Positions 5,182-19,132 are shown, counted from the stretch's first letter. The stretch: 64,000 bases of DNA from Candidatus Heimdallarchaeota archaeon (GCA_018238155.1 JABCTZ010000025.1:1-64000), one strand, 5' to 3'. Notes: generated by a model not told the origin, from the sequence alone. Numbers and translations: made by a program.

Positions 5182-7359
5182 TTGAGGTTGAATTTTATGA
5201 GTTTTGAAGCAACAGATATCATTCCACTAGAATATCAATCAATTTTCAATATTATTTCCCCATTAGAAAAGTCAGGTATTTTAAAGATTATAAAACAGGA
5301 TTTCGTTGATATAAAAGACAATTATGAGAAATTTTTATTTGGTTTACAAAAATATTTAGAAAAATATAAAGGGGAAGATATTTCCTCTATAGTTTTTCTT
5401 ATGTTTTCTCAAATCGCAACTGACTTACAACAAGAAAAACTGATAGTCAAAATGTTAGAAGTATACCCTGATTCATCTGAACTAAAATACTATAAAGTTC
5501 TACAAGATGTGGATAAAGGTATTTTTGATGGTATCGAAGAAGTATTAGAAATCGCTAGATTAGCTGATACAGAGCGAAATACTATTCTAACCAGATTAGT
5601 TGCTGCAGATAAACTAGCGAAAATAATTCTCGATTTGCAAAGCTTTATTTTAGAAATGTCATTTTATTCTTTAAAAGAAGAACATGATAAAATTCCTGAT
5701 ATTTATGAAAAAGTAGAACCTATTTGGAAACGCGTTGTTGAATGGGTTAGAGAAAAAGATATTATTTATGTAATTGAAATTGCTTCGCGAATAATCATTC
5801 AACAAACTCAACATCTAATGAGAGCTCAAAATCTCGACTCTTCTATAGCCTTTTATGAAAAAGAAGAAAATCAAGATGTATTGAATATTAGTCAAAGTGC
5901 TGCTATGAGAGCAAATATTTTACATGTTGCATCAACGTTATACTACCAAAGCGGAAAACCAAAGAAAGCGTTAAAATTACTAGAAAAAGCAATTAGACTT
6001 CATAAAAAGATTTATGGTAGAAATTCTTGGAAATCAACTTTTTATCATAACCTCGCGTATATGTACTCTTTAACTGATACCGACAAGTGCTTGGGGTCTT
6101 ATCATAAAGGATTAGCCCTTTTGGAAAATACTAATGATTTACAATCCATAGCTTCTACACTTAGTAATATAATAGGTCTCTACATACAGTTGAATAAAAA
6201 ATCTGAGGCAAGAAAATACCTAAAACAACTAGTCAATATTCTTGAATCTAGCGAAGCTTTAGTTACGGCTTTTAGAGCTTATGCAGTTACCGCCAATGCT
6301 TTATCATTAGATGAATATTCCCTTGCTAAGAAATATTTAGTTAAATTAGAAGAGCAAGTTGGAAAACAACCCACATTGTTCAATAAAGCTCTCCTTGCAG
6401 GAGCAAAAATGGGCTTTAATACAGATGCTAGAATACATTCAGAAGAAGCTTATCTGTGGGGAGAAGAATGTCTTTATTATCTCAATAAACAAAAGGATTA
6501 TCTCAATGTATTAGCATCTCTCTTTAATTTAACAGAGCTAGATATTAATTACTATAAAATAACTGGAAAAGAGCGATATCTAAAAGCTGCTAGAAAACGG
6601 TTTAATGAATTATTTACATTAATTGGTGCATTGAAATTACCTGAATTTGTCGCTGCGAAAAATATTATCTATGCATGCTATGAGTTATTAAATAAAAATT
6701 TTGAACAAGTAACAAGTTTATTGGAAAAAATACCTGATGTAAAAAGTGACTCAATTAGAAAAAATAAAGAAATGCTAGAACAGATTCTAAAATTCTCAAA
6801 GGATCGCATGGATATAGAAGATGATGCTGAGCCGATAACTGTTTCTTCTGAGGTATTAGTAAACGAAATAGCAAATAATAAAGATGCACAACAGGTTTTC
6901 ATAATGCATATCTTAGGAAAAACCCTACAAGAACTCATTTCTATACCACAACAAGTTGATCCCATAAAAGCTGATATTAAACTATTGTTGCTAATTAATT
7001 CTGCGGGTCTGACTATTTTCACAAAAGTTCTTGATATTCAAAAAATGAACCAACAATTAATTTCTAACTTTATCTCTGCTATAGATTCTTTTGGCAAACA
7101 ATTGTTTGGTACAACTGAATCATATTTTTCAATAAGTCGTGGCAATAATATCATTTTATTCCAAAAGGTCAATGAGGATTTAGATCTAGCTTTAATTGTA
7201 TCACAAGAAAATTTTGATTCAATTATGAAACTCAATACTCTTTCAAAAGAAATTAATGTATATTTGGGAGAAAATAAAATTGATTTAAATAAAGTTCTAA
7301 ATGAAACCGATTCATTTTACAAATGGCTTCAAAAAGAAAGTGATGAGCTAATCCAATAA
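5182..7359 (+). CDS. TPR-repeat protein with C-terminal longin-like domain
   Basis: TPR-like helices (YHNLAYMY, TLSNIIGLY). C-terminus IKLLLLINSAGLTIF...QLISNFISAIDSFGKQLF is typical of Asgard longin domains. Confidence 0.8.
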   Translation: MRLNFMSFEATDIIPLEYQSIFNIISPLEKSGILKIIKQDFVDIKDNYEKFLFGLQKYLEKYKGEDISSIVFLMFSQIATDLQQEKLIVKMLEVYPDSSELKYYKVLQDVDKGIFDGIEEVLEIARLADTERNTILTRLVAADKLAKIILDLQSFILEMSFYSLKEEHDKIPDIYEKVEPIWKRVVEWVREKDIIYVIEIASRIIIQQTQHLMRAQNLDSSIAFYEKEENQDVLNISQSAAMRANILHVASTLYYQSGKPKKALKLLEKAIRLHKKIYGRNSWKSTFYHNLAYMYSLTDTDKCLGSYHKGLALLENTNDLQSIASTLSNIIGLYIQLNKKSEARKYLKQLVNILESSEALVTAFRAYAVTANALSLDEYSLAKKYLVKLEEQVGKQPTLFNKALLAGAKMGFNTDARIHSEEAYLWGEECLYYLNKQKDYLNVLASLFNLTELDINYYKITGKERYLKAARKRFNELFTLIGALKLPEFVAAKNIIYACYELLNKNFEQVTSLLEKIPDVKSDSIRKNKEMLEQILKFSKDRMDIEDDAEPITVSSEVLVNEIANNKDAQQVFIMHILGKTLQELISIPQQVDPIKADIKLLLLINSAGLTIFTKVLDIQKMNQQLISNFISAIDSFGKQLFGTTESYFSISRGNNIILFQKVNEDLDLALIVSQENFDSIMKLNTLSKEINVYLGENKIDLNKVLNETDSFYKWLQKESDELIQ

Positions 7360-7586: not shown

Positions 7587-8072
7587 TCAATCTTTACAAG
7601 CTGTTTTAATCCAGTCAGCGGCTATATCCAGTAATGCAGCAACAAGTTTTTTTCTTCTATGTAGCTTCTCTGCATCAGCTTTACTAAGTTTTTCAAGTAA
7701 AGAATTGTCTTTAGTGGCCATTAGAATATATTGTTCAGCGGTGTGAGGCAATTTAATTATTTTTGTCCATACTTTGGTATTTCCGGATTCAAGATATGAA
7801 TAGTTTAATGGACCAATTTTTAAATAATCACTAATACGTTCAGAGAATTCTCCGGAAAGAGCACTGACCGCTGAAATATTTTCCTTTTCTGCAAGAGGAT
7901 GAATTATTTCTGCCATGAATAAACCATTCTCATCTGTCAATACACAAGAACGCAGTTTTCCAGCTTTAAATAATTCTTCAATAATGATGGTTAGCATTTG
8001 ACTTCGAGAACAGGTTGGATTTTTTGCCAGTTTCTTTTCGATTTCATTAGATAATTTGGTAGCTTTGGACAT
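7587..8072 (-). CDS. Roadblock/LC7 (LAMTOR/MglB-like) domain protein
   Basis: LRSCVLTDENGLFMAE...ENISAVSAL...IGPLNYSYLESGNTKV roadblock pattern. Confidence 0.8.
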   Translation of the reverse strand: MSKATKLSNEIEKKLAKNPTCSRSQMLTIIIEELFKAGKLRSCVLTDENGLFMAEIIHPLAEKENISAVSALSGEFSERISDYLKIGPLNYSYLESGNTKVWTKIIKLPHTAEQYILMATKDNSLLEKLSKADAEKLHRRKKLVAALLDIAADWIKTACKD

Positions 8073-10423: not shown

Positions 10424-11647
10424 ATGTCTAAACCAAAATTAGAATCAAAAGTAATTGTCTTAGGATTATCACAGTCAGGGAAAACATCAATACGACAAGT
10501 CATATTTGAAGGATTTGCACCGGATTCAACTGCTCTAAATCCTGCAACGGTAAGAATAAACAGAAAATTGTTTAGTTTAGCTGGAGGAGGTATAAATCTG
10601 TTTGATATCGGGGGTCAAACATCATATCTCAATGAAGTTTTTGATCAATACAAAGAAAGAACCTTTACTGATGTAAAAGCAGCCATTTTTGTTGTTGATG
10701 TTTCTGATGCCGCAAATATTATGCGTTCAAAGTATTATTTTGATTTAACGCTCAAAAATCTTGCATTATTAAGTAAAAAGTCGCGTATCTACATTTTTGC
10801 TCATAAAATGGACGTAGTCCAACTGAATAAAAGAGCAGTAATGGTTGAGTCAATAGGTGAAATTTTTGAAACAGACAATTATGACAATGTAAGCATTTAT
10901 GGAACGTCTATCTTTGATCAAACAATTTGGGATGCAATGCAAAAGGTTCTTTCATTTGTTTATCCTAGAGATGATAGTAAAACAAAGAGTATCAAAGATA
11001 TTGTAGGAAAATTCTCATTAGAATTTCTAGCTCTTTCAACTTCACAAGGATTGGTTCTTTATTCCGAACCCGAAGTTGATACCGGAGTTAATTATTCTAG
11101 ATTGAAAAATGAGATAACAAAAGCTTATTTTCCAAATAGTTATTTGAATCAAGCAATATTTAGTATTGGGGGATTTAACGCTTTTATGAAAGAATTAGAT
11201 GAAAACTTAGTTATAACAACAGTATTCGCATCAGATCATACAATACTTCAATCTCAAAAATCCTTTACTCAGTTATCTGAACAAATTAGAACATTATTCA
11301 AGCCAGATGAACTTTTAGGTCGAGCTAAAATTAAAATGAAAACAAATTTAGAGGAACATCTTAAGAAGAATGGTTTAAAGAATGTTCAAGACCTTGATAG
11401 AAAAATTGATGCAAAAATAAGTATCAAGTGTGATGTTTGTGGTAAACAAATACAAAAATCGTTATTGGATGTTGCACTAGAAAATTCAGAGCAAATAGAA
11501 AGAGGTATGAAAATTTCTGCTGGTTTTGGAGTTTCTACAATTGAAATGTATCCGCTACACGATTGTATTGAAGGTATACGTGAAATACCAGTAATATTAG
11601 ATGGTAATTTAGAATATCGTCGATATGATAAAAGCAGACCAATCTAA
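10424..11647 (+). CDS. Rag/Gtr-type small GTPase + roadblock-like domain + C-terminal Cys/His (zinc-binding-like) domain
   Basis: G1 GLSQSGKTS, G2 PAT, G3 DIGGQ, G4 HKMD, G5 TSIFD; LEFLALSTSQGLVLYS roadblock-like; CDVC...HDC. Confidence 0.88.
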   Translation: MSKPKLESKVIVLGLSQSGKTSIRQVIFEGFAPDSTALNPATVRINRKLFSLAGGGINLFDIGGQTSYLNEVFDQYKERTFTDVKAAIFVVDVSDAANIMRSKYYFDLTLKNLALLSKKSRIYIFAHKMDVVQLNKRAVMVESIGEIFETDNYDNVSIYGTSIFDQTIWDAMQKVLSFVYPRDDSKTKSIKDIVGKFSLEFLALSTSQGLVLYSEPEVDTGVNYSRLKNEITKAYFPNSYLNQAIFSIGGFNAFMKELDENLVITTVFASDHTILQSQKSFTQLSEQIRTLFKPDELLGRAKIKMKTNLEEHLKKNGLKNVQDLDRKIDAKISIKCDVCGKQIQKSLLDVALENSEQIERGMKISAGFGVSTIEMYPLHDCIEGIREIPVILDGNLEYRRYDKSRPI

Positions 11648-11719
11648 TTAATGAGCAAAATTAGTTAACTGTTCAAATCAAAATTTGGTTTTGATTATGA
11701 ATAGGTTAATCTCTTTTTA

Positions 11720-13465
11720 TTATTGTTCCTTATTTTCTTCGGAAGATTTTTGTTGCACTAAAAATTCTACTAGTCTTTTTACATCACTCTTTGAAAGAGT
11801 GAGTTTTTCTTCTGAATCTCCTTCTAAATTTGAAGCTAATAATTCAATCTGTTTTACATTGTATCTTTTTCTCTCTTCTTTCAAACGGTCCATGAAACCC
11901 TTTTTCACTGGTTTTAAGATTTTATCTGTTTTTAGAACCGCTTCTTTTACTTCCTCTTCAATTGCTATTTTGTGCTCATCAGGTTTATCTGTAACAAGTT
12001 CTTGAATGGGTTCTTCTACTACTACAGTTTCATTAATTTCAGCTATTGATTCTGTAACAGGCAGACTAATTTTCTCTTGTACTTCTGTTGGTGTTTCAGT
12101 CACTAGGGGAGCTATCGGTCCAGTTTTTGGTTTTGGTTCATCTAAATGTACTTGTATAGGTTCTGTTGGAGTGCTTTTGAGCTCATCCTTTAGTTTATTT
12201 AAGAATGTGAAACTACTCGTCTCAGCTACGACTTCAGCTTGTGCTACTTTTAGTTTCGGTATTTTCTTATCAGCTTTCGATTTAGGTGCTTTAACAGTAA
12301 CTTCCTTAGCTTCAGAAGGAACAGCAGGTAGATTAATGTTATCTATGGGAGCTTGCGGTGTTTCATCAGTAGATTGAGCAAATTTACGAATTAATTCATA
12401 AAATATCCTAGTTTTATCTTCGGTAATTGCTGAAAATGAAGTAATGAGTAAAATATTTTTATCAAGATTGAAAACCATTGCATTAACTTTGTTATTTGAA
12501 GAAGTAATTATTGATGCAGTAGTGCTTTCACTTATTTCTTTTTTCTCTTTTATAATCGTTTTAAATTCTTGTAATGCAGAAATATAATCTATTGATTTCT
12601 CAGAACTCACAGCTCCTTTTGAGGAGGTTCCAACAACAGGTGAAAAAGTTTCACGGTCAATTAAAACGATTTCAACAATATCATATTCAGATAGATCAAA
12701 ATTAATAGCCATTTTACCAAAGGTGGGTAATGTTGCTTGTGGTTCTGGATTAAGAAACTCCATTAATTGTTTAATTCTGGGATCTTCTTCATGTTCCATA
12801 ACGTAGCTCTGAAATTCATCACTTTCCTCTATTTTTTGACCTATATTGGTAATTAATTCAAAACGTTTTGAGTTCATATTCACTTCATTCATTAAGGTAA
12901 AAATCAATTCTTTCAAGCTCTCGGCATAATAAATACTGGAGGGTTCGAATCGAATATTGTACTTGTTCTCATCAAAGGTATCAGCTACGTGTCCGAGTAA
13001 TGGCACTAATTCTTCTGGAGGAATTAAATCTACTTTATGGCAAAGAACTGTAATAATACCTTCGGGATTTTCTTTCTTAAATTGGCGAATAGTAAAACTA
13101 AATCTTCGTTCCGATTCCTCAAATAGATTTGGACGAGTCATATCGATTATCCAAAAGAGAATTTTTACATTGGAGAAAACTAGATGCCTAAAATGAGTTA
13201 CAGCTTCGTTCCAGTAATTTTCTTGTCCACCAGAATCGATAATTAAATTGGTCTTTTCTTCATCTATATATTGACGTTCATAGTGGACTGTAGCCATGTA
13301 ATCTTCAACTTCACCAGGTTTTTTACCAAAAAAGACTACATCTTTGATAGCAGTTTTTCCTGCTTGTTGAAGACCCATGAAAAGTATTTTATCTTCTACT
13401 TTTACATCAGAGTCATCAGATTTTAATTCGTCAAATAGATAAGACATTAACATCACTAGTTTCAA
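11720..13465 (-). CDS. Rag/Gtr-type small GTPase + roadblock-like domain + long Pro/Glu/Lys-rich disordered tail; likely start ATG 13447
   Basis: G1 GLQQAGKTA, G2 MAT, G3 DSGGQ, G4 HKVD, G5 SSIY; IVEIVLIDRETFSPVVGT roadblock-like segment. Confidence 0.88.
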   Translation of the reverse strand: MKLVMLMSYLFDELKSDDSDVKVEDKILFMGLQQAGKTAIKDVVFFGKKPGEVEDYMATVHYERQYIDEEKTNLIIDSGGQENYWNEAVTHFRHLVFSNVKILFWIIDMTRPNLFEESERRFSFTIRQFKKENPEGIITVLCHKVDLIPPEELVPLLGHVADTFDENKYNIRFEPSSIYYAESLKELIFTLMNEVNMNSKRFELITNIGQKIEESDEFQSYVMEHEEDPRIKQLMEFLNPEPQATLPTFGKMAINFDLSEYDIVEIVLIDRETFSPVVGTSSKGAVSSEKSIDYISALQEFKTIIKEKKEISESTTASIITSSNNKVNAMVFNLDKNILLITSFSAITEDKTRIFYELIRKFAQSTDETPQAPIDNINLPAVPSEAKEVTVKAPKSKADKKIPKLKVAQAEVVAETSSFTFLNKLKDELKSTPTEPIQVHLDEPKPKTGPIAPLVTETPTEVQEKISLPVTESIAEINETVVVEEPIQELVTDKPDEHKIAIEEEVKEAVLKTDKILKPVKKGFMDRLKEERKRYNVKQIELLASNLEGDSEEKLTLSKSDVKRLVEFLVQQKSSEENKEQ

Positions 13466-13533
13466 TATTTCTTTACGTGTAGTTTAGGCAGTAAAATTGA
13501 AATATCAATGTTACTATCGCGTCAATTTTGTGA

Positions 13534-16500
13534 TTATTGATATTGCTTATTTTCCTCTTTGCTTTTCTTTAAGTTATTTTTAGCGGCTATCATAATAATA
13601 ACAGAACGTCTGCGAATCTTTTCTAAGAGAACTTTAATTTCTGTTAGGGTTTTCTTTTCTTTCAGAGCAAGAATAAGTTCATCTATTTCTACAAACATAA
13701 ATTCCTGATTTGAAAGCATTAAGCCTCCAACAGTTGTATCTGCAAGAATAATTAAAGAAAGGTTTTCAAATCCGCCTCTGGCGTTTTTATTTTCTAATTG
13801 AATACCATGAATGAAAGCAATCATATCTTCATTTGGTAAATTAATTGAACCAATCCTTCTTTTCTCATCATGTTCTTCAAATCCTAAGGAGGAGTATGCT
13901 TGATCTGATATTTTCAGTAAGAAATTATCAACACCAATACGCATTCTTCGACTATATTCAGGTTGTTCGAGTGAATGATCCATAATTAATGGTACAGGTC
14001 CTTTAGCTTGGTCAAATAAAGATAAGATAACACCGGGAGAAACTTTCTCAAAATAATCATCGATTTCTTGTTCTGAGACTTTTTCCATTAGCTCCTCAAA
14101 TGGTCTTGCTCTGACAAGACGATAAATAACGAAGCTCATCACTATTGTAAAAAGAAGGCTTCCGGCAATAATCATAATAAGTATATGAATAGGTAGACCT
14201 GCAGGGTCAATGATGAAAACGTTTTCAGTATATTCTGTTCCTAATGGATCATATATATCACTACCACTATAGCTCACAAAAATAACTACATAATCCATTT
14301 CTTCAGTCATTTCAAAGGAAGTTTGGGCTAGTCCATTTGCATCAGTTGTTGTTGTTTTATTGATTAAATCATTGTATGCTGTTGGTATTTCTGTTGCAGT
14401 TGCAACATCTTTGTAAACAATATAAATACTGAAAGTGATATCTTGAAATGCTACTGGAGTACCATCTGCTCTAAATAGTTCTGCGTAAATGACTAAATCG
14501 TTCCCATAAACTATTTCACTACTCGAGACATTAACACTTAAAATAATTGGCACTGGCAAAATTGTGGCAGAAAGCGATGAGGTATCATTCATAATACCAA
14601 AATAGAAATTTGATTCTATGTATATTTCAAATAAATGATTACCTTTTGCAGATATGAAATCAGCAGAATTGAATGTTATTTCATAAATAAAATTGACCGC
14701 ATCAGTCAATACATATGAGATATCTTGGTAATTATTATTAACTGAGACAAAAGTAAAGGCTTGAGCAGAAGAATTTGTATTGTCAAATAGTTTGAGTGAT
14801 ATTGAAATATCTTCACCATAAACAACATTTGTTGTAGAATCAAGAATAAGGAGATTACCTTCCCCTCTTTGTATTAGTAAATTAATCGTAACAGATTGTT
14901 TATGATCACCAAATTGCCAAAATTGGAATTCAATGTATTTGTAAGTATTATCTGTCACATTTGTTGCATCAATTCTAAATTCATAGGAAGTGGAATTTAG
15001 CTGTGTCTGTGTTACTCCTAAATTGAGACTAGTATCTTCTTCAATATATGCCAATGTTAAGCCATTTATAACAGTATTATTTACGGTATCTCTTACATCA
15101 ACTGAAAATGTAAACGATTCTCCGTACTTCATGACGTAATAATAGTCATCAGAGAAATCTCCGGGAGTAAGATAATTTATTTCTATATCATCCACGGTAA
15201 AAACATATTTGGCTACTATTGTATTTGTATACAGTCCACCACCTGTATCATCCTCTAATTCAATATAAAGAACATGAACACCGTCAAGTGATGGAACAAT
15301 GATATCATATGGAGCTGTCAATGTTTGAGAATCATTATCGGCATCCCATCGAAAACTAAATTCTTGCAAATCAGCTGAGAGTACATTGAAATCAAGGAGA
15401 GTATTTCCTCTGATATATGTATCATTATCTACTCCTACTAAAGCATAATTTGGTGCATCAAAATCTAGAAAGAATTTGTACACAATTGTATGCGAATTTC
15501 CTACAATATCTTCAGTGAAGATTGTTATCGTAGCTTCTAATTCATCTTGATATAGGAAACTCAATGTAGCAGTAAATTCAGCATTTTCTGGAGAAGATGA
15601 ACCTTCAAGATTCCACTGTGAAGTAATTGTATCAATTGTTTCTTCAGAAAGATCTTCTATCTTGAAATTTAGAGGAGTGTATTCATTAATTTTCGAGTTA
15701 TTTTGTATAAAATTAAGTGAAACGGTAGGATGAGTATTATCAATGGTTATTGTCAATGTTTCTAATGCATCATTACCTAAAGTATCATTTGAATAAATAA
15801 TTAATATAGCTGTTCCTTCAATTGAAGGTAGAGTAAAGCTACTAACAAATAAAGTATAACTTGAATCATTCCATGAATAATAATTATTGAATGTTGGATC
15901 TGTATCGGTAATTATACACGTTACATCAGAGTTTGCAGGCACATAATTTGTACTATCCGGTAAAGTAGCTAAACCACTTATACTTGAGATTGTTATAACA
16001 GGAGCTGAAATATCGATAGTAAATTCAATATAATATCTAAAATAGTTTCCTGCGATATCAAAAGCAACGATTGTTAGATTATGTTGACCTTCAGATAATA
16101 AGCTAAGATAATAATCTAATGGTTGAGAAAAGGTTTGATTGTTTTCGTTATTTAATGAGATATAGATTTCCATATCTTCAGTTGAAGTCCAATTATCAGC
16201 TATTATAAATGATAATACAGTATTATCTAAAAATCTAGATTGATTATAGCTCGGTCCTGCATCTGCCTGAATAATTGTAGGTGCTTTTTTATCCACTGTA
16301 AATACGAATACAAATTCGTTGAGAATATCTACCGCATCAAAAACCCATACAGTTAAACTATATGTACCGGCATTTGAGGAGAGTGCATCAATTCCAGATA
16401 ATGTTAAGATATAATTTCCATCAGGAAATCCATCTTTTGGTGCATTATTTCCCCAGAAATATTTAACCGTACCATTATCATTGATTATTGTTATTTCAAC

Positions 16501-18231
16501 ATTATCTCCACCCATATAATATGAACCATTTACCATATTTGTTAATTCAACAAGTAGATAAGTAGTATTAGTATAAAATGAATAGATTTGAGAGTTATCA
16601 TGACCAAATGTGTCATTAGCATATACAGTTAGATTATGCCAACCTTCTGATGTTGGCAATGTAGTTCTCCAAACATTGCCAGAAACTTTAGTTGTCCAAT
16701 CCACAAAACTATCACTATCCCATTTGTATAAAACATCAATATCTGATTCATCAGATATTTCGACATCAATATTCTTACCTAATGGTTGTTGAGTATTATT
16801 AACAACATTGTCTAAACCAATTATTGGTGCTGAATTATCAAAGTTGAAGTAGTAAATTGTGTATTTTGTTCCAAAGAAGCTATCCGTTCGAATGGTTAAA
16901 TTATAAATACCATCATATCCTTCATTTACAACAAAGTCAAATGGAGCTTCTAAAAGTGAATAGACACTATCAGTTTGCCATTTGAAAAAGGCAAAATCAA
17001 CACCTTCAGAAATGGTGAAATTAAGCATTTGTCCATCTGAAATCAAAGAGTTATTGGATGGTGACTCCAAAATAACGTCATCTCCCGTTGGATCATAACC
17101 AACAACAAAAGTTACTTGGGCAGTGTTTTCGAATAAATCTTCTGATTCAATTACTAAGGTATGCCAACCTATTGTCTCTGGAAGAGAAACTATTGTTGAT
17201 GTACCAAAGGTTTCAATTGGCTCAGTATTCCATTGATATTGATCTGAGACAGATCCTATGACAGATATTGTTGCATTGGTTGCTTCATAATAAATAGTGT
17301 TATTTGTAAAGCCTGTAATATCAATTGTTGGATATTTCTCTTGGTACCCATATAGCTGCATGCCAAATGATTCTGTATAGTCATCTATATGATAGCTATT
17401 ATCATATGTATTATTGGAATCATCTATTGTCCAATCAAAGTCATATTTGTAATTACCAGATCTAAGCTCAATGTTGTTATCACTTCCAGATACATAGGAA
17501 GGACCCCACAAACTCGATTCATAAGTTATTCGTAACCTATACCCTGCTGGAAGTAGAGTAGTGTTTGCCAATTCAAAATTAAATAAACGTTGCCCATCAT
17601 CAATGTATCCTTCTGTAGAACCCAAGAAAACAGTTTGACCGGTATTTGGATTGAATCGATCCATGGTAATTCGTAATTCCCACCAATTTTCTGCAGAAGG
17701 ATAAACGTCACAATGTACTTTAAAGAAGACTTTTCCTTGGAGGTATGTGTCAACAGTATATGTGGGAGTAAAAATAGTTGAGTTAATATTCTCACCGTTA
17801 ATTAGATTATTACTTCGTAATTGTCCCCATGTGTCTAATGGATGCCAGAATGTGCTTGCATCAGAAGAACGATTATATTGTCTAAATCTAGCATAGTCAA
17901 AATCTGCTGCAGAATCTTTTACATCAGCAAAGAGTTCCCACTCGAAAACATTGCCGTTTTCATCTAAATCAACATATTTGTCTTGAGTGAAGAATCCTAA
18001 TGTTTTATAATTACCCGGGGTTTCAACATCATTTTCAATAATTGCTGCTGGACCAAAAGAAACATCATTTGAATCATCAGGTAGTGCTAGAGGTTGAATA
18101 GCTGAAACTGTTTCATTGTATACTCCTTCACTAGAAATTTCAGAATAATAATATAATGAACTAATGCTTAAAATCACTAATATAATACTTATAATTCTGG
18201 TTTTATTTTTAATCAACATATTTAACCTCAT
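13534..18231 (-). CDS. Large single-pass surface protein: Ig-like repeats, TM (~aa 1346-1370), cytoplasmic FLCN/SMCR8-like longin (uDENN) domain
   Basis: Signal peptide; repeated GWHNLTVYANDTFGH / D..P-I Ig-like units; TM; cytosolic ILSLFDQAKGPVP...NARGGFENLSLIIL. Confidence 0.8.
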   Translation of the reverse strand: MRLNMLIKNKTRIISIILVILSISSLYYYSEISSEGVYNETVSAIQPLALPDDSNDVSFGPAAIIENDVETPGNYKTLGFFTQDKYVDLDENGNVFEWELFADVKDSAADFDYARFRQYNRSSDASTFWHPLDTWGQLRSNNLINGENINSTIFTPTYTVDTYLQGKVFFKVHCDVYPSAENWWELRITMDRFNPNTGQTVFLGSTEGYIDDGQRLFNFELANTTLLPAGYRLRITYESSLWGPSYVSGSDNNIELRSGNYKYDFDWTIDDSNNTYDNSYHIDDYTESFGMQLYGYQEKYPTIDITGFTNNTIYYEATNATISVIGSVSDQYQWNTEPIETFGTSTIVSLPETIGWHTLVIESEDLFENTAQVTFVVGYDPTGDDVILESPSNNSLISDGQMLNFTISEGVDFAFFKWQTDSVYSLLEAPFDFVVNEGYDGIYNLTIRTDSFFGTKYTIYYFNFDNSAPIIGLDNVVNNTQQPLGKNIDVEISDESDIDVLYKWDSDSFVDWTTKVSGNVWRTTLPTSEGWHNLTVYANDTFGHDNSQIYSFYTNTTYLLVELTNMVNGSYYMGGDNVEITIINDNGTVKYFWGNNAPKDGFPDGNYILTLSGIDALSSNAGTYSLTVWVFDAVDILNEFVFVFTVDKKAPTIIQADAGPSYNQSRFLDNTVLSFIIADNWTSTEDMEIYISLNNENNQTFSQPLDYYLSLLSEGQHNLTIVAFDIAGNYFRYYIEFTIDISAPVITISSISGLATLPDSTNYVPANSDVTCIITDTDPTFNNYYSWNDSSYTLFVSSFTLPSIEGTAILIIYSNDTLGNDALETLTITIDNTHPTVSLNFIQNNSKINEYTPLNFKIEDLSEETIDTITSQWNLEGSSSPENAEFTATLSFLYQDELEATITIFTEDIVGNSHTIVYKFFLDFDAPNYALVGVDNDTYIRGNTLLDFNVLSADLQEFSFRWDADNDSQTLTAPYDIIVPSLDGVHVLYIELEDDTGGGLYTNTIVAKYVFTVDDIEINYLTPGDFSDDYYYVMKYGESFTFSVDVRDTVNNTVINGLTLAYIEEDTSLNLGVTQTQLNSTSYEFRIDATNVTDNTYKYIEFQFWQFGDHKQSVTINLLIQRGEGNLLILDSTTNVVYGEDISISLKLFDNTNSSAQAFTFVSVNNNYQDISYVLTDAVNFIYEITFNSADFISAKGNHLFEIYIESNFYFGIMNDTSSLSATILPVPIILSVNVSSSEIVYGNDLVIYAELFRADGTPVAFQDITFSIYIVYKDVATATEIPTAYNDLINKTTTTDANGLAQTSFEMTEEMDYVVIFVSYSGSDIYDPLGTEYTENVFIIDPAGLPIHILIMIIAGSLLFTIVMSFVIYRLVRARPFEELMEKVSEQEIDDYFEKVSPGVILSLFDQAKGPVPLIMDHSLEQPEYSRRMRIGVDNFLLKISDQAYSSLGFEEHDEKRRIGSINLPNEDMIAFIHGIQLENKNARGGFENLSLIILADTTVGGLMLSNQEFMFVEIDELILALKEKKTLTEIKVLLEKIRRRSVIIMIAAKNNLKKSKEENKQYQ

Positions 18232-18397
18232 TCTATCTTTGTTTTAGTGCCTTGAATTTCTATTTAGGCATATGTATAATTGTTTATGAAACTATATATT
18301 CGCCATTTATTCACTATTCAAAGCATTCTTTTGGTTTAAACAGCATAACCATACTATTTCTTATCTTTAAATTTTAGCAATTAGGAAATAAATGGTA

Positions 18398-19132
18398 TTA
18401 TCCTAGATACTTTAGATTATTATTCTCAGAAACAAGTTGTTGAAGACTAAAAGCAGTTACAAAAGAAGTGTAAATAGCTTGTTTTAGATCATCTAGACCT
18501 TCATCAGATACATTAGACATTTTCACGGAATAGATATTATTTAAACTTACATCAATTCCTTTTTTATTCAAAATAAAACTCTTGACGAATACTTTTGCAC
18601 TTTCGATTTGTTCATCAGTAACAATTAAAGCGTCTTTTTGATCGAGATGCGTACCTAAAATGATGATACTAGTATATTCTTTTACCATATCTCTTTTCAT
18701 AGCACGATCTAACCAGTATTCTAATTCTTGAAATGTTTTGATATCTGTTAAATCAAAGGTCAGAACCAATGTTAATACTTGATTTATTGTGCTTACATTG
18801 AAATAAAAATCAACAGCATCTTCAAAAGCTAATCCGGCACCATACTTTGCTCGTCCCTTTTGACCTGGCATAATGAAAATTTGAGAACTAGTTGTTATTT
18901 GATATTCTTCAATATTCGAGTGAAAAATGAAATAATTAAATTCTAAATTAACTGATTTCTTTATATTAGCAATACTAGCAGGGAAACTTTCTTTTCTTTT
19001 AAAACTTGCCAAATTTAGAGCCGTATGTGTTTTTCCAGTATTACCATCACCTATGAAAACAACGCCACCAGTACATGTTATTTTGCTTTCGCGTAAACGT
19101 ATTAGCTTTGATATATCGTTTTCATCTGACAT
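18398..19132 (-). CDS. Divergent Ras-superfamily small GTPase
   Basis: G1 GDGNTGKT; G3 is IMPGQ (Asp missing); LTFDLTDIKTFQELEYWL; G4 THLD; G5 SNV. Confidence 0.8.
   Translation of the reverse strand: MSDENDISKLIRLRESKITCTGGVVFIGDGNTGKTHTALNLASFKRKESFPASIANIKKSVNLEFNYFIFHSNIEEYQITTSSQIFIMPGQKGRAKYGAGLAFEDAVDFYFNVSTINQVLTLVLTFDLTDIKTFQELEYWLDRAMKRDMVKEYTSIIILGTHLDQKDALIVTDEQIESAKVFVKSFILNKKGIDVSLNNIYSVKMSNVSDEGLDDLKQAIYTSFVTAFSLQQLVSENNNLKYLG

Follow-up and report, generated by a model that had tools for sequence, protein, structure and literature searches.

A surface protein with a folliculin-type longin tail in a conserved block of GTPase genes in Heimdall-group Asgard archaea

Results

A four-gene block encodes three GTPases and a single-pass surface protein

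The DNA analyzed here (the window) is a 64,000-nucleotide stretch from Candidatus Heimdallarchaeota archaeon, positions 1–64000 of contig C8 in an Asgard genome of 4.08 Mb (30% GC, completeness 91%). It carries a block of four genes in which a large surface protein, ending inside the cell in a longin domain of the folliculin (FLCN)/SMCR8/NPRL2 type, is flanked by three GTPase genes: an atypical small GTPase (GTP3) and two Rag-type proteins, RagA-type (P0001) and RagB-type (P0002). A prediction made earlier from the sequence alone (the original prediction) had described three co-oriented genes converging on a second Rag-type GTPase. The open reading frames (ORFs) agree with it in both strand and coordinates, with three on the minus strand and one convergent on the plus strand at exactly 10424–19132, and the intergenic gaps across the block are 166, 68, and 72 nt (Table 1). 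The two peptides quoted from the cytoplasmic tail were likewise recovered there, ILSLFDQAKGPVP at amino acids (aa) 1402–1414 and ENKNARGGFENLSLIIL at aa 1480–1496 of the 1565-aa protein.

Table 1. Coordinates of the four-gene block, its domains and motifs, and related longin genes (window positions unless a locus or contig is named)
Feature	Position	Strand	Remarks
GTP3, atypical small GTPase, 244 aa	18398–19132	(-)	Directly upstream of the surface-protein gene, same strand
Surface protein, 1565 aa, single-pass	13534–18231	(-)	Signal-like N-terminus, ectodomain, transmembrane (TM) helix, cytoplasmic longin tail
Ectodomain aa 372–940, six tandem Ig-like β-sandwich modules of ~92 aa each	15412–17118	(-)	AlphaFold2 (AF2), Foldseek
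TM helix, aa 1346–1372	14116–14196	(-)	Hydropathy; next to it, facing the cytoplasm, basic residues (RLVRAR)
FLCN/SMCR8/NPRL2-type longin, aa 1400–1565	13537–14034	(-)	AF2, Foldseek, VIA-align, ESM Atlas
GP motif FDQAKGPVP, aa 1406–1414	13990–14016	(-)	β1-β2 turn
ARGGFEN, aa 1484–1490	13762–13782	(-)	β4-β5 loop in model
RagB-type GTPase (P0002), 581-aa ORF	11720–13465	(-)	Pfam Gtr1_RagA, conserved start
RagA-type GTPase (P0001), 407 aa	10424–11647	(+)	Convergent on the other three genes; Pfam Gtr1_RagA
Longin + Gtr1_RagA GTPase + C-terminal domain, ~470–480 aa	L082:6113–7552; L083:6451–7857		Other Asgard classes
Longin + Ras-family GTPase, ~350 aa	L073:1790–2854; L087:5995–7050		Other Asgard classes
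Soluble GP/ARGG longins	C6:75754–76917 (L086:6755–7915); C7:65441–66628; C8:72694–73392		Window's genome, outside the window

A hydropathy scan of the surface protein detects a signal-like N-terminal segment and a sole internal segment above threshold, the TM helix of Table 1. With one internal helix the protein is therefore single-pass, placing ~1300 aa outside and a 193-aa tail in the cytoplasm. N-x-S/T sequons number 32 in the ectodomain, a density of 2.4 per 100 aa against 0.2–0.8 in the tail and the three GTPases. This fits a glycosylated exterior, and the surface protein is probably N-glycosylated.

The original prediction called this an immunoglobulin (Ig)-repeat protein. At the level of fold this holds for the six modules: with 18 orthologs in the alignment, AF2 models them as all-β (mean predicted local distance difference test (pLDDT) 86.9), and Foldseek matches the model to the Ig arrays of GhpA, contactin, and titin (E 1e-16 to 1e-12). 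BLAST self-comparison finds no internal repeats in the ectodomain, and the modules are visible only through their fold and a boundary motif, D-x2-(A/H)-P, at aa 470, 652, 745, 836, and 928 (spacing 91–93 aa). ESM Atlas features for the ectodomain point to Big_13/Big_7, and Pfam returns only a sub-threshold PKD match.

The cytoplasmic tail folds as a GAP-type longin

The longin begins ~27 residues below the membrane, and the protein stops ~15 residues past the last longin helix. The AF2 model of the tail (pLDDT 95.3, predicted template modeling score 0.90) has the topology β-β-α-β-β-β-α-α, with strands at 7–14, 18–26, 66–72, 77–87, and 95–105 of the model, plus helices. Its best structural match is a Lokiarchaeota longin, 8yqg (VIA-align Z 13.5, Foldseek E 1e-5). 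Among eukaryotic chains, VIA-align scores Lst4 at Z 12.6, 6nzd_H of the lysosomal folliculin complex at 12.2, 6lt0_C of the C9orf72-SMCR8-WDR41 complex at 12.1, 8dhb_J (FLCN) at 11.8, and the GATOR1 chains at ~10, whereas the longins of Ykt6, Sec22b, AP sigma, and TRAPP reach at most 9.6. The tail is nearer to longins of GTPase-activating proteins (GAPs) than to SNARE, adaptin, or TRAPP longins, by a moderate margin of 2–3 Z units. Foldseek E-values for the same longin set run from 1e-5 to 2e-3, with 9v0j_A (GATOR1) at 7.7e-4 and then 8dhb_J and Lst4. In the comparison with FLCN, SMCR8, NPRL2, and C9orf72 longins that the original prediction had proposed, the tail folds as a longin of that group.

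A shape search of the ESM Atlas has as its top row a 274-member cluster of Asgard longin-GTPase fusions, and it returns eukaryotic FLCN, SMCR8, and C9orf72 clusters (TM-score 0.65–0.72) as well as a Heimdall cluster partly carrying Pfam Folliculin. By sequence, the tail finds only chance-level matches in the PDB, whether searched as a single sequence or as a 67-row profile. Sub-threshold Pfam Folliculin matches are present in 39 of 67 tail relatives (best E 1.7e-4); in the studied tail this match aligns tail residues 81–137 with profile positions 50–104 and spans R1485. The homology of the tail to FLCN is seen only by fold and by these weak Pfam matches.

Searching 1.84 billion representative proteins yields 74 relatives of the tail, and in nearly all of them the domain forms the last 160–180 residues of a 300–3400-aa protein, right after a TM helix. 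In some genomes, open frames with this tail are as long as ~8,800–10,400 aa. Aligning 67 tails, 20–69% identical to the one studied, leaves F1406, Q1408, G1411, P1414, S1447, F1451, R1485, G1486, E1489, N1490, and R1540 invariant, and the aspartate and first proline of the GP motif are retained in at least 90%. In the model, G1411-P1412 stands at the start of strand 2. The catalytic arginine fingers of the eukaryotic proteins are R164 in FLCN, R147 in SMCR8, and R78 in NPRL2; the candidate arginine finger of the tail, R1485, is encoded at 13777–13779. A 2025 study reports that a GP motif in this position, next to the arginine finger, characterizes FLCN, NPRL2, SMCR8, and C9orf72 as catalytic longins (PMC12290439). 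The motif is missing from the FNIP2, NPRL3, adaptin, TRAPP, and DENND longins and is present in a class of Asgard longins (PMC12290439).

Gene order is conserved and the four genes are co-inherited

The original prediction had called for a synteny survey in Asgard genomes. In 47 loci retrieved from other genomes, each centered on a tail-domain gene, the GTPase neighborhood proves both conserved and co-inherited. GTP3, one surface-protein gene or a tandem pair, and the RagB-type gene follow one another in this order, with the RagA-type gene convergent on them, at ~20 loci, in the family of the window's own genome (f1) and in a second family (f2). Wherever a locus includes the flank, GTP3 is the gene directly upstream of the surface gene, and in some genomes (L050, L055, L045) the two overlap or all but touch. 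In genome G086 the four genes are present in a different order, and in G160 only GTP3 remains beside the surface gene.

In a tree of 58 tails, the studied gene falls within a well-supported 22-row clade. At least two GTPases lie within 3 kb in 16 of these rows, and the other rows are cut by contig ends or represent the upstream copy of a tandem pair. Within one genus, the closed genome G074 is without orthologs of the tail, GTP3, RagA-type, and RagB-type genes, and the single-contig genome G026 has all four clustered. Over 40 f1 and f2 genomes, the tail and RagA-type genes are both present in 24 and both absent in 10, with the tail alone in 4 and the RagA-type gene alone in 2; the distribution of GTP3 is similar. 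Assemblies in the mixed cases are fragmented, and several of them, such as G151, G268, G229, and G274, have matches near contig starts. As the relatives are not independent, these counts are descriptive and not a statistical test. Identity across orthologs is 29–48% for the ectodomain and 59–74% for the longin.

The four genes thus form a module that Heimdall-group Asgard archaea have conserved. With 56 GTPase-like ORFs in the 4.08-Mb genome, a rough Poisson estimate puts the chance of at least three within 3.5 kb of one gene at ~6e-4; conserved synteny is the stronger argument.

Two neighbors are Rag-type GTPases and the third is divergent

Both Rag-type assignments of the original prediction are borne out by Pfam, where P0001 scores 112.5 bits (2.7e-32) and P0002 77.7 bits (1.1e-21) against Gtr1_RagA (PF04670, cut-off 22 bits). 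The G domain of P0001 reads GLSQSGKT, DIGGQ, and AHKMD, and that of P0002 reads GLQQAGKT, DSGGQ, and CHKVD. The P-loop, switch I threonine, DxxGQ, and HKxD G4 are kept in all 16 P0001 and all 19 P0002 orthologs; HKxD in place of NKxD is typical of Rag GTPases. G-domain identity among orthologs is 50–77%, rising to 90–96% for copies within the genus.

Profile searches of the PDB match P0001 to Gtr1 (2.4e-30), RagA (5.4e-28), and RagC (7e-15), and P0002 to Gtr1 (1.9e-16), RagA (1.3e-15), and RagC (7e-12). A pairing of one RagA-like with one RagC-like protein is not supported: both profiles score better against Gtr1/RagA than against RagC. P0001 aligns with Gtr1/RagA up to chain residues 245–271, part of the C-terminal domain, and P0002 aligns by its G domain only; the C-terminal parts of both have no Pfam match. 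In Rag/Gtr proteins, heterodimerization is mediated by a C-terminal roadblock domain. In P0002 the G domain is followed by a middle domain that is conserved, then by low-complexity sequence, and last by a helical end. As called, its ORF opens with TTG. The orthologs all start MSYLFDEL, so the true start is probably the ATG at 13447.

Both proteins have distinctive C-terminal regions. In P0001 a CxxC...HxC arrangement (C336, C339, H379, C381; window 11429–11566) is invariant in 16 orthologs and looks like a zinc-binding add-on; we know of no eukaryotic Rag protein with an add-on of this type. In P0002, aa ~380–581 (window 11720–12300) comprise ~160 aa of Pro/Glu/Lys-rich low complexity and then the helical C-terminus, and ortholog ORFs range in length from ~490 to 690 aa.

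The third GTPase had been called divergent, and GTP3 gives only weak sequence matches to Ras (1.9e-5) and a Thorarchaeota Rab (0.005). Its P-loop GDGNTGKT is intact, its G3 reads IMPGQ, without the aspartate, in place of DxxGQ, and its G4 reads THLD in place of NKxD. These three motifs are invariant in 14 orthologs. A complex prediction with four chains (P0001 and P0002 G domains, GTP3, and the tail as partner) gave no answer (score 0.01, mark 0.32) and counts neither way; its four-chain design differs from that on which the tool was calibrated.

Longins of this type are linked to Rag-type GTPases elsewhere

Paralogous TM-tail genes lie beside other Gtr1_RagA genes in f2 (L071, L072), f4 (L080), and f22 (L049), and families f14 and f27 have single proteins that join a GP/ARG longin to a Gtr1_RagA GTPase (Table 1). 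The fused longins match the tail-alignment profile at E 1e-11 to 1e-14 and keep the GP and ARG motifs. The longin of L087 has a proline in place of the arginine.

The window's genome also encodes three soluble GP/ARGG longins. Two are ~390 aa with a DENN-like second half, one of which passes Pfam Folliculin (24.3 versus 23.3 bits); the third has 232 aa and contains a CxxC motif. No GTPase gene lies within 10 kb of these three genes. Searched from a soluble paralog, homologs are Heimdall and Asgard proteins only, mostly 58–100% identical, and phmmer finds no match to this paralog in the PDB. These searches do not reach eukaryotic FLCN by sequence, and so give no alignment of R1485 to R164.

Other neighboring genes

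Two further ORFs in the window were considered as partners and rejected: a 725-aa TPR protein (5182–7359) as a longin partner and a 161-aa ORF (7587–8072) as a roadblock partner. Neither has a Pfam longin or roadblock match, and neither is found beside the cluster in any locus fetched from other genomes. SurE and SPFH genes border the block within the genus, and the four-gene cluster itself contains no mobile-element genes. A look-up of expression evidence lists no sequencing run for either the cluster or the tail gene, and no RNA holder.

Discussion

We favor, as somewhat probable, a reading in which the surface protein is a membrane-anchored FLCN-type longin with the co-inherited GTPases as its clients, acting most likely as a GAP through R1485. 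The Ig-repeat, probably glycosylated surface protein crosses the membrane once and presents a GAP-type longin inside. This longin, probably dimeric like other longin platforms, would dock one or more of the three GTPases at the cell membrane and is predicted, most likely, to stimulate GTP hydrolysis through R1485. The state of the surface protein would thereby be coupled to the nucleotide state of the GTPases. GAP action is the most likely activity because the tail has both the GP motif and the loop arginine, the marks that separate GAP longins from longins of scaffolds or of guanine nucleotide exchange factors (GEFs). Gene arrangement, topology, fold, motif invariance, synteny, joint presence and absence of the genes, and longin-Rag fusions elsewhere are observed, and from them we infer binding, GAP catalysis, client identity, and the direction of signaling.

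A number of observations weigh against this reading. The FLCN/SMCR8-like domain of the original prediction stands as a longin of the FLCN/SMCR8/NPRL2 type, by fold, GP motif, and arginine, but the tail scores 13.9 bits against a Pfam Folliculin (PF11704) gathering score of 23.3, and the surface protein has no DENN module after the longin. Nor is there a second longin gene in the cluster, though known longin GAPs pair two different longins. With neither the DENN module nor a longin partner in the cluster, the protein is to be regarded as the carrier of an FLCN-type longin domain and not as a folliculin ortholog. R1485 would be the equivalent of FLCN R164 by topology and invariance, rather than by residue-level superposition. 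GTP3, the most tightly linked neighbor, is not a Rag protein, and the client may accordingly be something other than a Rag. The three soluble GP/ARGG longins of the same genome could be the real Rag regulators. Finally, of 47 sampled TM-tail genes, 21 lack a GTPase within 3 kb, and the GTPase link is therefore not universal in the tail family. Family f4 accounts for most of the 21, some of which are truncated at a contig end or are the upstream copy of a tandem pair. Most f4 paralogs are without a GTPase neighbor, and they often stand in tandem as three giant TM-tail genes (L052, L060, L079).

Synteny, co-inheritance, and the fusions do not distinguish a GAP from a scaffold or a GEF. The tail could be a non-catalytic docking platform, as in Ragulator, or an exchange factor, tethering the Rag-type pair, GTP3, or both at the membrane next to the surface protein; the GTPases could also act inside-out, on export, clustering, or turnover of the surface protein. 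Most longin platforms, among them TRAPP, Mon1-Ccz1, and DENN, are of the GEF or docking kind. Roadblock and longin platforms are mainly GEFs or scaffolds (PMC10933270), and the adjacency or overlap of GTP3 with the surface gene fits a dedicated chaperone or trafficking role. The GP motif with an invariant arginine, however, is reported to separate GAP-type from GEF and scaffold longins (PMC12290439), and the FLCN, Lst4, and SMCR8-complex chains outscore the TRAPP, adaptin, and SNARE longins in our comparisons. We regard docking, exchange, or inside-out action as possible but doubtful.

The original prediction went further than GAP activity and read the locus as a one-component outside-in switch and a precursor of Rag signaling. 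In its full form, this would be an archaeal receptor-GAP in which contact or ligand at the ectodomain rearranges the longins and so switches the Rag-type pair at the cell membrane, with the lysosomal FLCN/GATOR-Rag nutrient switch of eukaryotes descending from such a surface-coupled module in Heimdall-group archaea. We consider this extended scheme unlikely.

The direct partner of the tail might instead be encoded elsewhere, as a GTPase or as another longin (for example the soluble longin-DENN of C6 or C7 in a heterodimer), with the neighboring genes only co-regulated. Eukaryotic longin GAPs are heterodimeric (PMC12290439), MK-D1 GTPase genes generally lie outside the operons of their regulators (PMC10933270), and the genome offers 56 GTPase-like ORFs and three soluble GP/ARGG longins, one above the Pfam Folliculin threshold. 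The four genes, however, are present or absent jointly even within one genus, the soluble longins are not near GTPases, and the longin-Rag fusions argue for a direct link of this longin type with Rag-type GTPases, leaving a partner elsewhere quite improbable. It is very improbable indeed that the synteny is without functional meaning and reflects history alone, for example through mobility or recent acquisition of the genes as a unit: their distribution in f1 and f2 is patchy and the relatives are not independent samples, but gene order was retained while the ectodomain drifted to ~30% identity, the longin-Rag link recurs in separate lineages of paralogs and in fusion proteins, and the cluster is free of mobile-element genes.

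Asgard longins with the GP motif (PMC12290439) and longin-GTPase fusions (Tran et al. 2024, PMC10933270) are already published. The client GTPases of the former were posed as a question (PMC12290439), and Asgard GTPases were described as impossible to pair with regulators from genome layout (PMC10933270). The text of PMC12290439 mentions neither transmembrane forms nor gene neighborhood, and the literature searched contains no mention of the transmembrane fusion or of the conserved Rag/GTP3 block and no paper behind PDB 8YQG, 8ZLA, or 9M28. The candidates supplied by this locus are definite and inherited together: a longin tail and three GTPases, each of a size suited to expression. The module thereby offers an archaeal counterpart of the Rag switch of eukaryotes that can be tested. 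Should the tail prove to be a Rag GAP, folliculin/GATOR-Rag logic would be older than eukaryotes and would have been connected at first to a protein of the cell surface, not to the lysosome. It would then bear on the origin of nutrient or contact sensing and of endomembranes.

Folliculin-FNIP (yeast Lst7-Lst4) is a longin-DENN GAP for RagC/D (Gtr2) (PDB 6NZD, 6ULG, 8DHB, 4ZY8). The archaeal tail resembles it in its longin fold (Z 11.8–12.6), the GP motif at the β1-β2 turn, the β4-β5 arginine, and a genetic tie to Rag-family GTPases, but is a longin only, with no DENN and no FNIP-like partner in the cluster. Folliculin-FNIP is also soluble and recruited to lysosomes, whereas the archaeal longin is covalently anchored at the cell membrane behind a ~1300-aa ectodomain.

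GATOR1 (NPRL2-NPRL3-DEPDC5) acts on RagA/B, and C9orf72-SMCR8-WDR41 acts on Arf (PDB 7T3B, 9V0J, 7MGE, 6LT0). Both share with the tail the longin class and the GP motif, and both have an arginine finger (PMC12290439), for which R1485 is the candidate counterpart in the tail; the two archaeal Rag-type neighbors are nearer to RagA/Gtr1, the client of GATOR1. The archaeal module is, however, membrane-integral and without DEPDC5, WDR41, or DENN parts, and the likeness of the tail to NPRL2 (Z ~10) is weaker than that to FLCN and Lst4.

Compared with the eukaryotic Rag/Gtr heterodimers, neither archaeal protein is specifically RagC/Gtr2-like, P0001 has the extra CxxC...HxC, and P0002 has a long low-complexity tail; the likeness lies in two adjacent paralogous Rag-family G domains with HKxD and in the partial alignment of P0001 with the Gtr1/RagA C-terminal domain. 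The Asgard longin-GTPase(-roadblock) fusions (Rag-like class, Tran et al. 2024, PMC10933270) carry a longin of the same type as the tail, joined to Gtr1_RagA or Ras. Each fusion is one soluble polypeptide, whereas here the genes are separate and the longin is membrane-anchored. The Asgard ‘Folliculin/SMCR8 longin domain-containing’ proteins (PMC12290439) and the Loki Roadblock-Longin 8YQG have GP and arginine motifs as in the tail, and the soluble GP/ARGG longins of the window's genome belong to this group. What differs here from the longins of PMC12290439 is the setting, in which a surface protein carries the domain as its tail within a conserved block with three GTPases.

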